Source: Cystobasidiomycetes sp. EMM_F5 (Eukaryota). From it: a stretch of 38,874 nucleotides of DNA. The translations under genes and the position numbers were made by a program. The notes under the pieces are model-generated. The model was not told where the DNA came from, did not search any database, and worked only from the letters and a program-made list of their open reading frames with translations. Where the stretch lies: positions 124,001 through 162,874 of the forward strand of contig JBPGPT010000035.1 in NCBI GenBank assembly GCA_051047955.1, written 5' to 3'. Below are positions 25,139 through 32,745 of the stretch, one piece after another; the first letter of the stretch is position 1; each line of letters opens with the position of its first letter.

Positions 25139-25511
25139 TGAATCGTCTGACTGCTCCTACAATAGGCCAACTGACTGCGCAAGTTACGCGAGCTGAGTTA
25201 GTGTACTCTACAGGTTTGATGAGACGACCATCATGAATTTGGCATTGGCCACCGCATGAATCGACAATATAACATACAGGCTCCTCTCTACTGAACGCTG
25301 TATTGGCACGATACAAAACACACCATCTCAAAATGCCAGAATGACGCCGAACACGTCGAATCTTACACAGCACTAGTGTCACACAGCAGTTACCGCCACA
25401 CAAATTTGATGACCCTTTTCCCATGGTCGCACCAGGATCACCACTACTTTCTGGTCCTACGGTCAAGCCTGTGCTGTGGATGCGTTTGCCGCGACGCTTT
25501 AAATAGAGCAG

Positions 25512-25991
25512 ATGTCGGTTAGATCTTCTCCTCTCGCATCTCCGACTCTCCGTAGGCCAATATACATCTTGGACGGAGAAACAGTCAGTCATCTCACATC
25601 AGTCCTCTGCTCAGGACTCGACTTCAAGATCGGCATGGCAGAACGTAACCGCGACGGCGTGTACACGTATAAGATAACGGGAGCAGCGGAAGCAGCTGTT
25701 GAAGCCTGCAAGAAGCACCGCAGAATTCAGGAGCGGCAGGCGTCAGCGGGACTGCAACAGAGACGACCATCAGGCACTGAAACACTGCCCAGAAATGGGT
25801 CTTCAGCATCTCTTCAACCAGAAGTTGGAAGCGACCCGCGCATCGTAACACCACCACGCCGCAGATCCTCGAATGATACAATCCGTCGACTAAGCTCCGG
25901 TTTTGATGGTGCACCGTCTTTGACTAGTCCTCCGACATCTGCGGGGACCCCTACGAGACAAGTGATGCATATTCGCATTGGCAGTCTTTAG
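25512..25991 (+). CDS. Hypothetical protein (159 aa)
   Basis: ORF with protein-like composition (GLDFKIGMAERNRDGVYTYKITGAAEAAVEACKKHRR). No recognised domain. Confidence 0.3.
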   Translation: MSVRSSPLASPTLRRPIYILDGETVSHLTSVLCSGLDFKIGMAERNRDGVYTYKITGAAEAAVEACKKHRRIQERQASAGLQQRRPSGTETLPRNGSSASLQPEVGSDPRIVTPPRRRSSNDTIRRLSSGFDGAPSLTSPPTSAGTPTRQVMHIRIGSL

Positions 25992-26256
25992 CAGTCTTGC
26001 TGATTGACCATAACTCAATAGTCGTCGCCCGAGCAATGACGGTCGTGCACGATGAATGACGTTGGGCGCATAGGTGTCACACATCGGTGGTCCAATGCTG
26101 TTTTAGTTAGTTGTGACCCCATTTTGTATGATTAAGATTGGCTGTGCATTGCCTGTATGTATTAGTTATCAGTCTCGAGGAGAGAGGATTGCCGTTGACT
26201 CGACGAAACTTCCATAGTCCCCACCTACTATACATGTGATTGTGTTCGTCTATCTT

Positions 26257-27560
26257 TTACTGCGTCGGGACCTGAAGCAACATATTCCCTCCTGAGCTGG
26301 GAAGGTACGTCACGTTTCTATTCTTTGCCATTGTTCCTGCAATATCCTTTGCCGCTTCGATCCTTCGTAACAAGACGAGACCTTCTCCGGCGGTATTGAT
26401 GGCGGATGAAATAATGGTCGCTGCTTCTGCTTCTCCTTCTGCGCGAATGACGGACGCCTGTCGTTCTTGCTCACTTCGCTCGACGACAAACTTGGCTCGC
26501 TCAGCTTCCTGTTGTGCAATCTGCTTTTGTTCGACGGCTTGCGTGAATTCTTTCCCGAAGCTGCAGATGAACGGTACGATATAGACGAGGTAAGTATGCG
26601 TAATGGAAGGAATGACAGATTGATACTCACGTCAAGTGTGTCTGATGGTAGACAGAAAAGACGAGGACGAAAAACAATGTCAGCACTTTGTTTGCCACTG
26701 ATCTGGACGGCGCAGCCGTTCTTGAGATTCCACGACATTGTCGTGGGATTCAAGCAGGGCAGAGCCGTGACTATTTGTCCAGTCCATGTACGGCTTCGCC
26801 GTGCTTGCTGTATACCCACGGCAGAGCCGTCATCTATTGTGCCGTAATCTGACCACTCACCAATGAGACATCATCGAGCATGATATTAAACTCCCTTGCC
26901 CTCTTGAGCAGATCCTCCCTTATCCTCGAGCTGACAATCTCTCTCTGGGTGATGAGTTCTGCTGCATCAAACTGAGCGACGATGGCTTTGAGCACTTCAT
27001 TTCCGATTGACGGAAGTACTCGTTCGTCATAGTCCTGACCGAGCGTGCGATGGATCGTAGCGAGGTTGTTTACGTCTGGCCGGGACATTACCCTCAGAGT
27101 GAGGGATACCTGCTGGAGATCTCTTGACCCGGTCGTTGTTGAAATGTTGCGAGGTGTGATGCGGACATTGTAGAGGATTGCTCGTTGGAGTCCGGGAATG
27201 AGGCTGCGTCAATCAGAGGGTTAGTGAGAAATTGAATACGACGGCTACGCCGTCAATATGTCCAATGATGGTTATGACTTGCAAATGCGTTCCTTCACCG
27301 ATGGCGCGGTCCTTTACACCCGAGAATCGGTCAAAGATGATGGCGCGGTATCCACCTGGCACGTCGTACTGTCGACATTATAAAACGATATGAGCTGCGC
27401 CGTCCGTCCCTTTCAAAAGATTGCCGCCCACCAAACTCGACTGTGCGATTCCTACGCCAATAATGGCCGGGACTACATCAGGCGAAATGTGAGCACGTCT
27501 CCGTTTATTCCGTGTCATGGCGTCGTAGTCACCTGCAAATCGTCCAATGATTGCAGACAT
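26257..27560 (-). CDS. PHB1: Prohibitin 1 (exons 27560-27533, 27472-27432, 27368-27283, 27203-26861, 26641-26631, 26560-26257)
   Basis: Spliced product: [116 protein letters not shown]. Confidence 0.97.
26707..26830. repeat. Four ACGGC-N3-GCCGT palindromes inside PHB1 intron 4
   Basis: ACGGCgcaGCCGT at 26707, AGGGCagaGCCGT at 26756, ACGGCttcGCCGT at 26790, ACGGCagaGCCGT at 26818. Internal palindrome CCACGACA-T-TGTCGTGG at 26730-26746. Confidence 0.9.
27240..27254. repeat. Single GACGGC-TAC-GCCGTC palindrome in PHB1 intron 3
   Basis: Sequence gACGGCtacGCCGTc, the same motif as in intron 4. Confidence 0.85.
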
Positions 27561-27764
27561 GGCTCGTGTCGATGTTGGCAAAAGGCTGACGAGTGCTTTG
27601 ATGAAATTGAAGACATTATGGCTTTCCAATCAGACAACGAGTATCGAGTAGTGCTCTACAAGGATAGAGTATTCCGAAATGCCCGCACTGTGCAGCTCAA
27701 TCTCCTCTATATCCATCAAACGTGTTCAATATGCTGCGTAAAGACTGCCTCGACCGAGAGAATG

Positions 27765-28074
27765 GCGGCAAAGCCGCTCAATGTGACCAGAAGGAAGCAG
27801 ATAGTTTAGTGAATTAAATATAAAGAAGGAGCGGCTCTGCCGCTGTGGGATTCTTGGATTTGTCGAATTTGAACGGTGTAAACGCGTACGTCTGGCGAGT
27901 CCATTGTGAACGCGGCAAAGCCGCTCTAATAACGTGCCCTACAATAGGTCAGGCTTCATTGTAGAGCATGTTAATGTCAGTGAGCGGCCTTGCCGCAGTC
28001 AAGTCTTGGGATTAGTTGGATCCAATTGCTACTTTGACGTTGAAGCTGTACGGAATGCAGCGGCAGAGCTGCTC
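27765..28074. repeat. Five alternating-orientation GCGGC-N3-GCCGC(TC) palindromic repeats in the PHB1/PTP divergent intergenic region
   Basis: Cores start at 27765, 27831, 27912, 27984 and 28060. The 15-mer GCGGCARRGCCGCTC runs +,-,+,-,+. Confidence 0.92.
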
Positions 28075-28329
28075 TTTTGCTGGATATCATTAGTCTGTGT
28101 GTAGTCTTGCCCATCACTGCCGATTATCAACAATCCTGCCAGTTGGTTGAAATGCATCCCCTTTGCCGTTTCCATCTTTCCTTTTGACCATTCAAATCAA
28201 ACCATGACTGGATGATATCTGATTAGACGCTGCCCAATCTACTGCGTCTCGTCATTCAACGACAGCTCTAGACACTCTCAAACATCACACACCACTCCTC
28301 GCCGTCGTTGAAGGAATCCTGCAATACTG

Positions 28330-31300
28330 ATGCCGTCATCGGACAACGAAGAGATGCAGACGGCAGAGACGGCGAGCAGCAACTACTTTGGCGTGGTGGA
28401 GGGTCCCATCAGCGATACTCTGACAAACCTGCCCGCCTCGACAAGGTCTGTCCTCGCAAAGCGGGACCGCCATTCCCATTCTTCATCAGCAGCGACGGCG
28501 AGCAATGCCCCGTCTTCACCGGGTGGAGTTGGGATATCGCCCTTTTCGTATACGCACCGTACAGGCAGCAGTGCAAGTGTAAACCACCATAAATCAGTAA
28601 GAACGCCCATCCTCTCATCTCCGAGGCATGGCCACGATGACGACGACGACGACGAGGACGGGGAAGATGGGAATGGAAGGGAGGATCCGACGAGCGACGA
28701 CGAGATTGGAGCAAGAGACGGTGCGCGAGGGCTGGGCGTATCGGGCAACACTCCATCCACACATACCGCCTTCAACTTTGAATCCACTCTGCTCCAACTC
28801 AAACTCCCAGGAGCCGGAATTGTAAGCGGTGGTGGACCGCCAATCAAACCCATGCCAAAGGGGCTGCTGGGTGGAATCAGTTCAAGAAGGAGCAGTAACG
28901 TCCCGCTGCTCAACTCGCCCGGCGTCAGTTCTGCACATACTCCAGGCGTACACACCCCACACGCTGCACCGCAAGGTGTAGAAGCCAGCGGAAGCTTCTT
29001 CAACATGTCTCATCAGCCATCAAAGAGCGTCGGAGCTACCTTTTTCGCTGGACACTCTTCATCATCGTCGACACTGGCGGCTCAGCCGCCATTCGCCACA
29101 TCCTCTACAATGACCACTGCAGCTACTCCAACAGCAAATGGACCATTGAGCAGTACTACAAGCTCTGCTATGCGCATGTCTGCCAGCGATGCTGGCCCAT
29201 CGACTACGCTCACACAACCAGGAAGCACGGCTATGCCATTAAAGCTGCCCATCGGCGGAGTACGCGGTATGCCGCTCAAATTGCCAGGCGGTATCGCAGG
29301 CGTTCCGAACAGCTCCCTTACTGGAAAGAGTCTATCTGGCGCATCAACGGTCGCAAGCGGTGTACGGCGCGGTTCACTCGTCGTCAATACGAGATTCAAA
29401 GCCGTCTGCGTGCCGAGCCAGGAAATGCTAGACTATCTCATGGTGTCGCCGCCCTCTACGCCGGATGCATCGCCGACAATTGCACAGTATCGTTCGCAAA
29501 GGGAAAGAGAGTCGTCCGTTGCAAGTACAGTCTCGTCAACCTCGACTTCCACATCGACATCTTCGGCCACAGATCGGACCAACGAGCAGCGGTACAACAC
29601 AGATACGCTCGTTTTAGACCTACGTCCCCATACTTCATACGTCGCACAAGGTCGCCTCCGAGGATCCCTCAATATCTGCGTTCCCAGTACTCTGCTCCGC
29701 CGTCCGGCATTCAGTTTGGCAAAGATTGCAGAGACTCTGCCTACACGCAGAGAGCGCTCGAGGTTTGCAAAGAAGCTCAACCTCATCGACGCAGTGAGCG
29801 AAGGGGATATATCGTCTTATAAAAACGCCGGAGGAGCAGAAGGTGAACTGAGGCGTGCAAAAAGAGTACTGGTTCTAGATCAAGAGAGTACAGCACTTAC
29901 CGCCGATTCTGCCATCTTCTTTCTGCTCTCCAAGCTCGAACGAGCGGGTTTCAAAGGAGATTTGTGTTGGTTGAAGGGTGGTTTCGCTACACTTCTCAAA
30001 TGGCTTTACGATCAATCACACGCTGCACGAGCAGATGACGCAAAAGCAATGCAGACTTCGCCTGATGGAACGGCGGATATGCTCAATGCGGCAGACCAGA
30101 TCGGCAAAGACATCGTCGACTGGCAACCCCTGTCCGAGGATGATATCGTGGACGACGACGATGCCGATGCGGAGGATGGTCAGGAGACAGACGACAGTGA
30201 AGCATTTGGTCCCGATTCGCAATCTGGACAGCAGGACGAGACGATGACGGGTAACAACGATGCCACCACACCGCACGCTGCACCTCAAATCGATAGTACT
30301 GGCGCATTTCCTCTATCTATACCACGTTCCACTAGAGCGCCCTCGAGGTCAGATTCCGTAATGACCACGGACTCTACACCGGAGTTCGCATCTGTATTCA
30401 GTTCGGCACATTCATCATTTGCCGAAACGGATTCTGGCTTTGCGTCTGGCGGATCGGGACCTCGCGCATTCGATGCTGCTCGTCTACAACTGCCAGGAAT
30501 GAAACGGTCTGCCAGTCCAGGTAACATTCAAGGTTTGACTGGCTCGTTGGATCAACTGCAGCGTAGAGGAGTGACTGAAGAGCCCTCGGAGCCGCGAAAT
30601 GACAAAGGGTTGTCCAAGAGTTCGTCAGTGCCGATAATAAGGCCTGGAAAGTTACCTCTGGCGGCATTCCAATCGGGTTCTACTGCCGCTGCTGCTGCAA
30701 CTCTAGAATTGAAAGACACCCCTGCAGCCCCCGGACAGAAAAAGTCCTCATCGCCAATCGCACAGCTTCGACAGCTAGGCGCATCGGGAATGAGCGGGCC
30801 CAGTCTACCAATGCCCGACAAATGGGCTGGACTTGCGAAGTTGGAGCCAGTACCATCTAGCAAAGTGGCCGCGAACCCCTTCTTTGACAATATTCGCCAA
30901 AATATAGAGGTACGCTGGCATCCTCTCACACTGTACAGTCTCCAACTACTGACTCGCATGCGTTCGCTCGTACAGGCCGCAAGTATTGATACAACACTAG
31001 CACACGTCCCGCCGATGGAGATTGCACCCGAGTTCACCGACCCAGCTGTGATGGAGCATCTACCACCCTTCCTGCGACATCTCATCTCGCTATCGCCTGT
31101 CGCACGTGCCAAGAAACTGCATACTGAATACTTCGAGCTCGAGCGTAACGAGCAGCGTCGACTACAAAAGGTTCTCGATTGGCATTGTGAACAATCGCAG
31201 AGCAACGCATCCGGCCATACACAAGTTCTCCCGAACTCGACATCCGACAAGGATCATATTGTAGATGAGGTTGCTGATTCAATGTCTCATCGTGCTGCTA

Positions 31301-32745
31301 AATCAAAAGGCGATCAATACCATCCTTTCTCCATCTCTGCCGGCGTGGAGAAGGGTCATCTGAATCGCTATAAGAATATGTGGCCAGTGAGTCAGAGTGC
31401 GAGCTACGATGGCATTTTTACCCCTGCTAATAGATATTTCGCTCACTGCGAACAGTATGAGCATGCTCGTGTACGGCTTGCTTCAGAAGAGTCTCCCAAT
31501 ACCGGCGATTACATCAACGCTTCTCATATTCGACTAAGAGGAACTCGGAAGAGATACATCGCTGCACAAGGTCCGCTAGAAGGGACTACTGAGCACTTTT
31601 GGCGACTCGTCATGGAGCAGCATGTAAACGTTATTGTTATGCTTACGCTTCTCACTGAGGGCGGACGCGAAAAATGTACAAACTATTTTCGGACAGCCAA
31701 GCACGGTTCGATCTCTGTCAAGATGGTCGACGAGCGCGGAGACTCGCAAGCGATACGTCGCGCTTCGGCTGAAGAAGTTGGATTCTTTGGCTTTGGCGAA
31801 GCGGTCGCTACGCCACAACAGGCCGAGAAGACTGTACCGAACAAGAGTCCAGATACGGCCTCAAAATTAGGGCATAAGCGGTCACGATCACGGCGACTCA
31901 TGGACGATGCCCTGGTGCACCGCGTCATCGAGGTCAGACGGGATACAGACCCGCCAGATACACCGCCGCATGTCGTTCAGCACATTCAGTATATCTTGTG
32001 GCCGGACTTTGATATTCCGCCTGATCCGGCGGCTGTAGTTGACGTCATTGCCGAGACTAGTCAGGCTCATCGTGATGCAGCAAGTTCAAGAGACGATCCT
32101 GTACTGGTGCATTGTTCAGCAGGTGTAGGCAGAACGGGAAGTGAGTGACCATTATTATCTGGGGTACGGGTATGTGCGGATCTGATTATTCCATTAATCC
32201 ATTTAGCGTTTATCGCGGTCGATACGCTGCTTGAGAGATTCCGAAAGCAAAGGCGGCGCGGCAGCCGAACATCCAGTCACAGTACCAGTAGAGCTGGAAG
32301 TACAGAAACCTCTCGGCACGCTTCACCTACATTGATGGATGTCGACGCAGCGAGTGCTCCTCGGTCGTTTAGCCAAACCAATTCCGCAAAGCATACGTCA
32401 TTCTTCTCGGACAGCGCAAATAGCGAAACACTCCAAGCAATGAGTCTTGAACAAAAAGGTCCGCCACAGTCGCCTTCGAAACGAGGATATACCCCGGGAC
32501 TCAATGAGGACGACACGGAAGATCTCGTGGCGTATCTGCAAGAGAAAGATCTGCTGCCTCAAGATCGTGAGGATCCGATAAAGTCTGTCGTCGATCAGAT
32601 GCGTGAGCAGAGAATGAGCTCTGTTGCGAATGCTTCGCAGTATGTCTTTACCCATCTGGCACTCTTGGCTGGCATCGTAACAGATCTGCGCGAGGAAGGG
32701 ATCCTCCCTCCAAAGCAGGGCTCGCAGGCAAGCGAAACACCATAG
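28330..32745 (+). CDS. Protein tyrosine phosphatase with N-terminal rhodanese/CH2-like domain (Ptp2/Ptp3/Pyp1-type MAPK phosphatase); introns 30910-30975, 31387-31455, 32141-32206
   Basis: Rhodanese-like LVLDLRP...GSLNICVPSTLLRRP...LKGGF. PTP motifs NRYKNMWPYEHARVRL, DYINAS, YIAAQGPL, IVMLT, KCTNYF, WPDF, VHCSAGVGRTGTFIAVD and MREQR...QYVF. Confidence 0.93.

Follow-up and report, generated by a model that had tools for sequence, protein, structure and literature searches.

The prohibitin gene PHB1 of Cystobasidiomycetes sp. EMM_F5 carries, in its introns and in the promoter that it shares with a divergent protein tyrosine phosphatase (PTP) gene, a cluster of short GC-rich palindromes that is genuine, statistically extreme and far beyond chance. 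The cluster occupies a locus of 1.4 kb within the window, by which we mean the whole stretch of 38,874 bases of nuclear DNA that was analysed (contig JBPGPT010000035.1). All copies are built from inverted CGG and CCG triplets at one fixed spacing, CGG-N5-CCG, which bears out the form proposed in the original prediction, an earlier annotation of this DNA. Our leading, and still tentative, reading is that the palindromes are binding sites of a dimeric DNA-binding protein, most likely of the Zn2Cys6 type, multiplied by local copy-and-paste.

Palindromes at the PHB1 locus

When the window was scanned with the 13-mer pattern RCGGCNNNGCCGY, nine exact matches were obtained against 0.17 expected, and the maximum reached in any of 100 dinucleotide shuffles was one. 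The 8-base core CGGCNNNGCCG (CGGC-N3-GCCG) likewise occurred nine times in 38.9 kb against 0.59 expected; the motif is thus not at background frequency, and this possibility, raised in the original prediction, falls away. Eight of the nine exact cores were located within positions 26707-27996. The enrichment was limited to a single spacing: in a scan of CGGC..GCCG with spacers from N0 to N12, N3 gave nine occurrences and every other spacing between zero and two. An unbiased list of 5+5 palindromes with centres of 2-6 bases was headed by GCGGC/N3 (five) and ACGGC/N3 (four), all others being present at most twice.

The scans recovered the eight perfect copies announced at positions 26707, 26790, 26818, 27241, 27765, 27831, 27912 and 27984, as well as the one-mismatch copies at 26756 and 28060. 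The accompanying claim that the window holds no other N3-spaced copy proved wrong, as a ninth perfect palindrome, GCGGC-TCA-GCCGC, was found at 29077..29089 inside the phosphatase open reading frame (ORF), where it codes for Ala-Ala-Gln-Pro-Pro and stands without the TC flank described below. This copy, embedded in low-complexity coding sequence, is the single core in the 37 kb outside the locus and has probably arisen by chance from GC-rich codons. No copy was found in the other promoters and introns of the remaining 37 kb, as expected for a gene-specific control element.

As a source of the cluster, chance or an assembly artefact has virtually no probability and, for the cluster as a whole, is already refuted. 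Chance can account for the exonic copy at 29077 alone, with its Ala/Pro codons, but 0 of the 100 shuffles gave even two matches of the 13-mer pattern, and the restriction to N3 speaks against it as well. An artefact is contradicted by the presence of two copies on an independent contig of 167 nt, from a run labelled phyllosphere metagenome. This contig spans 27864-28030 with one difference, at 27955, and carries copies 27912 and 27984 intact; the long hairpin that these two copies form has the difference in its apical loop.

The PHB1 gene extends over 26257..27560 on the minus strand and comprises six exons, including an 11-nt micro-exon at 26631-26641. The exon model gives an uninterrupted coding sequence of 270 codons with GT/GC-AG intron borders, and a Band_7 domain was found in exon 4. 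Introns 1 to 5 were placed at 27473-27532, 27369-27431, 27204-27282 (GC-AG), 26642-26860 and 26561-26630 (60, 63, 79, 219 and 70 nt, respectively). Contigs from public runs, which supplied splice joints and one promoter piece (the 167-nt contig), confirmed introns 2 and 3, as the spliced contigs skip exactly 27369-27431 and 27204-27282. The donor of the confirmed GC-AG intron 27204-27282 is GCAAGT. According to this model, all copies at the locus fall in introns 2-4 or in the intergenic DNA between PHB1 and the PTP gene, and none in PHB1 exons, in agreement with the non-coding restriction that had been claimed. Since the left neighbour of PHB1 is convergent to it, the intron copies are not upstream sites of another gene.

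Intron 4 contains five palindrome units 24-34 nt apart. Three of them are perfect: ACGGC-GCA-GCCGT at 26707..26719, ACGGC-TTC-GCCGT at 26790..26802 and ACGGC-AGA-GCCGT at 26818..26830. A one-mismatch copy, AGGGC-AGA-GCCGT, lies at 26756..26768 and has a CAAGC flank in common with the copy at 26790, in inverted orientation. The fifth unit, ACGAC-ATT-GTCGT at 26732..26744, is a symmetric variant in which the fourth pair has changed from G-C to A-T on both arms; it lies at the core of a longer, almost perfect palindrome of 34 nt (26721-26754). With its 219 nt, intron 4 is three times as long as the other four introns; the excess corresponds to the palindrome array, and the intron would be of normal length without it. 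Intron 3 holds one perfect copy, ACGGC-TAC-GCCGT (27241..27253), and intron 2 a decayed one (27392..27405) that keeps one arm, the centre and a flank.

The divergent PHB1/phosphatase promoter measures 770 bp and contains five copies in the form of oriented 15-mers, GCGGC-ARR-GCCGC-TC. Going from PHB1 towards the phosphatase, these are GCGGCAAAGCCGCTC on the plus strand at 27765..27779, 205 nt upstream of the PHB1 ATG; GCGGCAGAGCCGCTC on the minus strand at 27829..27843 (palindrome at 27831); GCGGCAAAGCCGCTC again, identical to the first, on the plus strand at 27912..27926; GCGGCAAGGCCGCTC on the minus strand at 27982..27996 (palindrome at 27984); and GCGGCAGAGCTGCTC, with a transition in one arm, on the plus strand at 28060..28074, 258 nt upstream of the PTP ATG. 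The copies are thus found at distances of 205-512 nt from the PHB1 ATG and 258-553 nt from the phosphatase ATG, upstream of both. The alternating orientation of the original prediction is strict in these five (+ - + - +), an order with a chance of 1 in 16. Read on the strand that carries the 3' TC, all the centres are purine (AAA, AGA, AAA, AAG, AGA), and the five 15-mers differ among themselves by transitions only. The gaps between successive copies are 66, 81, 72 and 76 nt, and copies of the same orientation are separated by 147, 148 and 153 nt. In the same promoter, a CCAATCAG box was observed at 27626-27630, some 66-70 nt ahead of the start codon of PHB1. The box form of CCAATCAG is typical for CCAAT-complex sites at respiratory genes.

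A further motif, TGGGATT, is found at 27846..27852 on the plus strand and also at 26744 and 28007. Of its four occurrences in the window, these three, all on the plus strand, sit 2-24 nt after a palindrome, and two of them extend as TGGGATT..TTGGAT. It may represent a second protein site or be left over from a duplicated unit. A 148-nt unit duplicated in tandem was considered and rejected, its support being limited to the spacing of 147, 148 and 153 nt and to the TGGGATT..TTGGAT remnant in two spacers. A large inverted duplication centred near 27952 was discarded as well: although the three stem pairs share a centre to within 2.5 nt, no alignment was obtained for the intervening stretches.

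Relatedness, conservation and folding of the copies

The copies have centres and short flanks in common across introns and in both orientations. The decayed copy of intron 2 shares with intron 4 a 12-nt exact inverted match (complementary to 26705-26716), and the copy of intron 3 shares with it 19 nt that are 84% complementary to 26701-26719. The promoter copies show mutual matches of 85-90% over 19-20 nt. These shared loops and flanks show that the copies arose by copying and not independently. No relationship was found among the longer spacers that separate the copies (best z of 2.3-2.7 over all pairs). The copies also form a decay series, with eight perfect, two carrying one mismatch and at least one badly decayed.

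Among the six intron copies, pairwise identity reached 90% in the arms, a value that is partly a matter of ascertainment as the copies were located by their arms, and only 33% in the centres and 35% in the flanks (six nucleotides on either side), against 31-32% for random sequence. Conserved arms beside random centres and flanks mean that in these copies the half-sites have been preserved and the spacer varies freely, as would be expected of a site bound by a dimeric protein. In the promoter copies, the centres are 67% conserved. The earlier statement that the centre varies between fixed arms therefore holds for the intron copies, whose centres are at random level, but not for the intergenic ones, which carry purine triplets only. 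The co-variation announced for the outer pair was found throughout, with A..T in every intron copy and G..C in every intergenic copy.

Over 12 copies, 59 of the 60 arm positions pair, with an outer pair of A-U in six copies and G-C in the other six; this count applies to copies that were picked for their palindromy, and the A-U and G-C classes may be two lineages. Double-sided, symmetric changes have occurred at two positions, so that besides the outer pair the 12 copies show one compensatory pair change.

Two of the seven pairs of neighbouring copies (26707/26756 and 27912/27984) enclose an inverted-repeat spacer and can fold into long hairpins; the other five do not. The larger hairpin, of 93 nt (27908..28000), pairs copies 27912 and 27984 around an inner 16-bp inverted repeat (27930-27945 / 27958-27973). 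Its folding energy was -46.3 / -48.9 kcal/mol (z -7.0 / -8.4), and z was still -4.2 when the copies were held fixed and the spacer was shuffled. The second, of 70 nt (26703..26772), lies in intron 4 and pairs copies 26707 and 26756 around the variant at 26732 (z -5.1 / -4.6; z -5.2 / -4.8 with copies fixed and spacer shuffled). In the 38.9 kb of the window, four hairpins with at least 11 paired bases were detected, and two of these are at the locus. Intron 4 as a whole folded with -79.6 kcal/mol (z -3.65 relative to shuffles), and the promoter segment gave z values of -5.8 and -6.3, or -3.3 and -2.5 when the copies were held fixed. As palindromes fold equally well on both strands, these folding scores cannot separate a role in RNA from one in DNA.

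By eye, a frame resembling that of box C/D RNAs was noticed around the whole array of intron 4 (26674-26840, minus strand, about 167 nt), with an imperfect C box. It consists of AGAUGA (26835-26830) after ACAAU, and of CUGA (26683-26680) before C-AUUGU; pairing of the latter with ACAAU could yield a terminal stem.

For comparison with other fungi, metagenomes were scanned with PHB1 exon 4, which yielded 80 PHB1 loci (393,124 bases). None of these 80 contains such a cluster: 16 cores were counted in all, with a maximum of five in one 8.3-kb locus of 67% GC. Repeated 5+5 palindromes other than this one were absent from the 15 of the 80 loci that were examined for them, and synteny with the phosphatase was seen in none of the 80. 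The best other PHB1 locus is just 82-83% identical in the most conserved exon. At the position of intron 4, the coding sequence was continuous in 20 of 21 loci examined (of the 80), some of which may be records of transcripts. The comparison shows a cluster that appears to be lineage-specific and not an old feature of PHB1, and it shows nothing finer.

The original prediction had held that no gene feature explains the cluster, and no explaining gene or RNA family was found in the window or in Rfam. The covariance models of Rfam 15 gave no match at E values up to 1 over 25500-29500 on both strands. An HUH or recombinase gene beside the motif, also suggested, did not turn up: no transposase, HUH or recombinase domain was found in 41 distinct of the 80 window reading frames of at least 110 aa. 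The C6 zinc-cluster (Zn2Cys6) pattern was absent from all six frames of the window. No target-site duplication was seen by eye beside three of the five promoter copies. In viral contigs, at least 119 stretches with pairs of the G-type palindrome were found; most are phage DNA of high GC content (median GC 0.66), and they have no relationship to the present copies. One viral contig (6089 bases, 52% GC) carries twelve CGGC-N3-GCCG palindromes in 6 kb, among them several GCGGC-GAA/GCA/AAA-GCCGC hairpins whose flanks are unrelated; this phage-type contig has a dense GC hairpin family of its own that bears no relation to the window.

Literature searches for CGG-N5-CCG, for CGGCNNNGCCG and for exact 11-mers returned passing mentions or primer-like matches only, as judged largely from titles, and those for palindromes in Pucciniomycotina and basidiomycetes returned mitochondrial work only. 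At the level of titles and abstracts for the most part, no description of the motif or of such arrays in nuclear fungal DNA was found. The GC-rich replication origin motif of Pichia pastoris was rejected as a match, since its core TYGAAC, as given in the available part of the source, does not fit (PMC3945215).

Possible explanations: binding platform, copied hairpin or structured RNA

The reading that we place first, with confidence somewhat short of even, is that of multiplied sites for a dimeric protein. A symmetric dimer, likely of the Zn2Cys6 type, would read inverted CGG triplets five bases apart. Its sites would have been multiplied at the PHB1 locus via short-range copying of units of about 15-20 nt in either orientation, and would now make up a homotypic platform, with five of them in the divergent promoter shared by PHB1 and the phosphatase and six to seven in PHB1 introns 2-4. 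Such a platform could tune transcription of PHB1, of the phosphatase, or of both; here we infer the binding, the protein family and the responding gene. A dimeric binder explains why the arms are fixed and the spacing is strict, why centres and flanks vary freely in the intron copies, and why the copies occupy a promoter and are restricted to one locus. It is further supported by the arm sequence CGGC itself, which is kept beyond mere pairing ability. If the copies are binding sites, they constitute an unusually dense and exact homotypic platform, with twelve near-identical sites, half of them intronic, at a housekeeping gene for a mitochondrial scaffold in a barely sampled branch of the Pucciniomycotina; they would also provide a ready 13-bp probe for finding the regulator.

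Related arrangements are known among Zn2Cys6 regulators of ascomycetes. According to the available part of one paper, KojR recognises the consensus CGRCTWAGYCG, defects introduced by CRISPR into this motif of the kojA promoter abolished kojic acid production, and the AflR motifs are described as 11-bp palindromes (PMC9961346). As in these sites, the present copies combine inverted CG-containing half-sites with a fixed three-base centre in an 11-bp palindrome, and those of the promoter stand in divergent intergenic DNA, a few hundred bases ahead of the start codons; the Aspergillus oryzae site CGGCAAAGTCG differs from the promoter core by one base (PMC9961346). In contrast, the KojR and AflR sites, as far as this source was available, occur once per promoter, in secondary-metabolite clusters of ascomycetes and beside the regulator gene (PMC9961346). 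Here, 12 copies of a 13-bp palindrome, half of them intronic, accompany a housekeeping gene of a basidiomycete with no regulator gene nearby. A second parallel is offered by the Gal4 sites of GAL1-GAL10, where several inverted-CGG sites of fixed spacing are grouped in one bidirectional promoter, as at this locus. The Gal4 sites differ in their spacing of 11, in their variable spacer, and in lacking intronic sites, alternation and hairpin doublets.

Several observations weigh against a symmetric dimer. More than half of the copies lie in introns in the 3' half of PHB1 (seven in introns 2-4 versus five in the promoter). The promoter 15-mers are asymmetric, and their purine centres, TC flank and strict alternation are left unexplained by such a protein. 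Two of the seven neighbour pairs form hairpins of 70-93 nt, which are rare in the window, and the threefold length of intron 4 is accounted for by the array. The outer pair is always symmetric and is split by location, which fits copy lineages or base pairing better than a binding preference. Part of the arm conservation is ascertainment, as mentioned above, and translation of the window in six frames reveals no Zn2Cys6 motif.

Many of these observations would be accommodated by a selfish or neutral family of nuclear mini-palindromes, a reading that we consider possible, if on balance doubtful. A GC-rich hairpin of 13-20 nt would be copied in either orientation into nearby tolerant DNA, by hairpin-primed template switching, templated repair or some unknown enzyme, with no need of a host function; it would persist in introns and intergenic DNA only and would resemble a miniature nuclear version of the bacterial REP/BIME/REPIN elements or of mitochondrial GC clusters. 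Centres and flanks shared across introns in both orientations, promoter differences that are all transitions, as in young neutral copies, and the decay series agree with this account. Strict alternation with gaps of 66-81 nt is expected from chained inverted copying. The palindromy has survived two double-sided changes, the doublets fold into long hairpins, the extra length of intron 4 roughly matches that of the array, and the cluster is absent from the 80 other fungal PHB1 loci. However, no target-site duplications were seen by eye, the interiors of the doublets are unrelated, a single copy was found outside the locus in 37 kb, and the 41 of 80 window frames revealed no transposase, HUH or recombinase domain. 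An arm identity of 90% beside randomised centres is not predicted by neutral decay or by a correction that acts on pairing only, and the regularity of 147, 148 and 153 nt argues rather for a larger unit that was duplicated, with selection on the motif afterwards. Moreover, the unit is far smaller than any nuclear mobile element known to us, and we know of no nuclear mechanism that operates at such a size.

The bacterial REP/BIME/REPIN elements are imperfect palindromes of 20-40 nt, present in hundreds of copies per genome and tied to RAYT (HUH) transposases. The PHB1 copies are similar in being GC-rich non-coding palindromes that alternate in clusters and form inverted doublets folding into hairpins of 60-90 nt. 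They differ in their eukaryotic nuclear host, their core of 13 nt (15 in the promoter), the single locus at which they were seen and the lack of a RAYT/HUH gene in the window. The REP/BIME-like architecture of the original prediction was thus confirmed as regards palindromy, non-coding location and alternation, but no further defining feature was observed: size, host and the copy number known so far do not fit, and the window frames scanned gave no transposase. A nuclear eukaryotic hairpin of 13-20 nt, similar to REP/REPIN elements or GC clusters, that copies and inverts itself into introns and promoters and builds BIME-like arrays and REPIN-like doublets with no transposon-sized vehicle seems unlikely. 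If the palindromes were nevertheless self-spreading, they would be the first analogue of REP-like mini-palindromes from a eukaryotic nucleus and a natural case of hairpins seeding hairpins through template switching.

A miniature inverted-repeat transposable element (MITE) or foldback element was rejected: inverted ends of 15-20 nt are present, but no target duplication was seen beside three of the five promoter copies and the interiors are unrelated. The GC clusters of fungal mitochondria are ruled out by the nuclear context, with confirmed spliceosomal introns and the Nup84, Pil1 and PTP genes. The likeness to these clusters and to the ultra-short elements of fungi, as the available part of one source describes them, consists in short GC-rich hairpin units in introns and spacers (PMC4478555).

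The accessible parts of three papers report that template switching creates and maintains hairpins and homogenises the arms of inverted repeats (PMC8794818, PMC5453318, PMC8604942). Common to these hairpins and the present ones are short, nearby reverse-complement copying, arms that are kept complementary and the lack of target duplications; in those descriptions, however, single events give individual hairpins, and not the repeated spread of one 13-mer (PMC8794818, PMC5453318, PMC8604942). By analogy, short template switching is a plausible route for either kind of copy, be it a binding site or a hairpin that spreads by itself. Both alternatives of the original prediction, a dispersed mini-palindrome and a protein-binding platform, survive in this analysis; the term dispersed was not borne out, with one copy in the other 37 kb. 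Under either of them, the locus illustrates that an intron can grow to three times its length through short palindromes while splicing stays undisturbed.

That the hairpins act at the RNA level is, in our estimation, quite improbable. They would function in the introns of the PHB1 pre-mRNA, possibly in a long 5' leader, or in a putative promoter-associated transcript, where they might compact intron 4, bringing the splice site near the branch point, or bind an RNA-binding protein. Intron 4 and the promoter segment, the latter also with copies fixed, do fold better than their shuffles, the 59 paired cells of 60 and the double-sided changes at two positions are compatible with a conserved stem, and within intron 4 the array is flanked by the 5' splice site on one side and the branch region on the other. 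On the other hand, the stem sequence is fixed and does not covary freely, the lack of any Rfam match at E up to 1 offers no support, and the purine centres alternate between strands, so that no single transcript shows them uniformly.

Neighbouring genes and further observations

The phosphatase gene (28330..32148, plus strand) is a single ORF of 1272 aa, divergent to PHB1, with a Y_phosphatase domain (Pfam, 6.4e-43) and a rhodanese-like domain (Rhodanese, 1.4e-4). Within it, an Asp/Glu-rich GAC/GAT repeat (28636-28661) draws high-depth contigs of other organisms, which is a low-complexity match and not evidence of expression. The further genes of the window are ordinary nuclear ones and include Nup84, Trm732, the eisosome gene Pil1, a family-18 glycosidase and Nfu. 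For the nucleoporin, the best named relatives come from Microbotryomycetes and reach just 43-44% identity, which points to a host among the Pucciniomycotina that has no close sequenced kin. Twelve nucleotides past the Nup84 stop codon, a 13-bp GC-rich hairpin with a 14-nt loop was observed at 2900-2943; its sequence is unrelated to the palindrome family.

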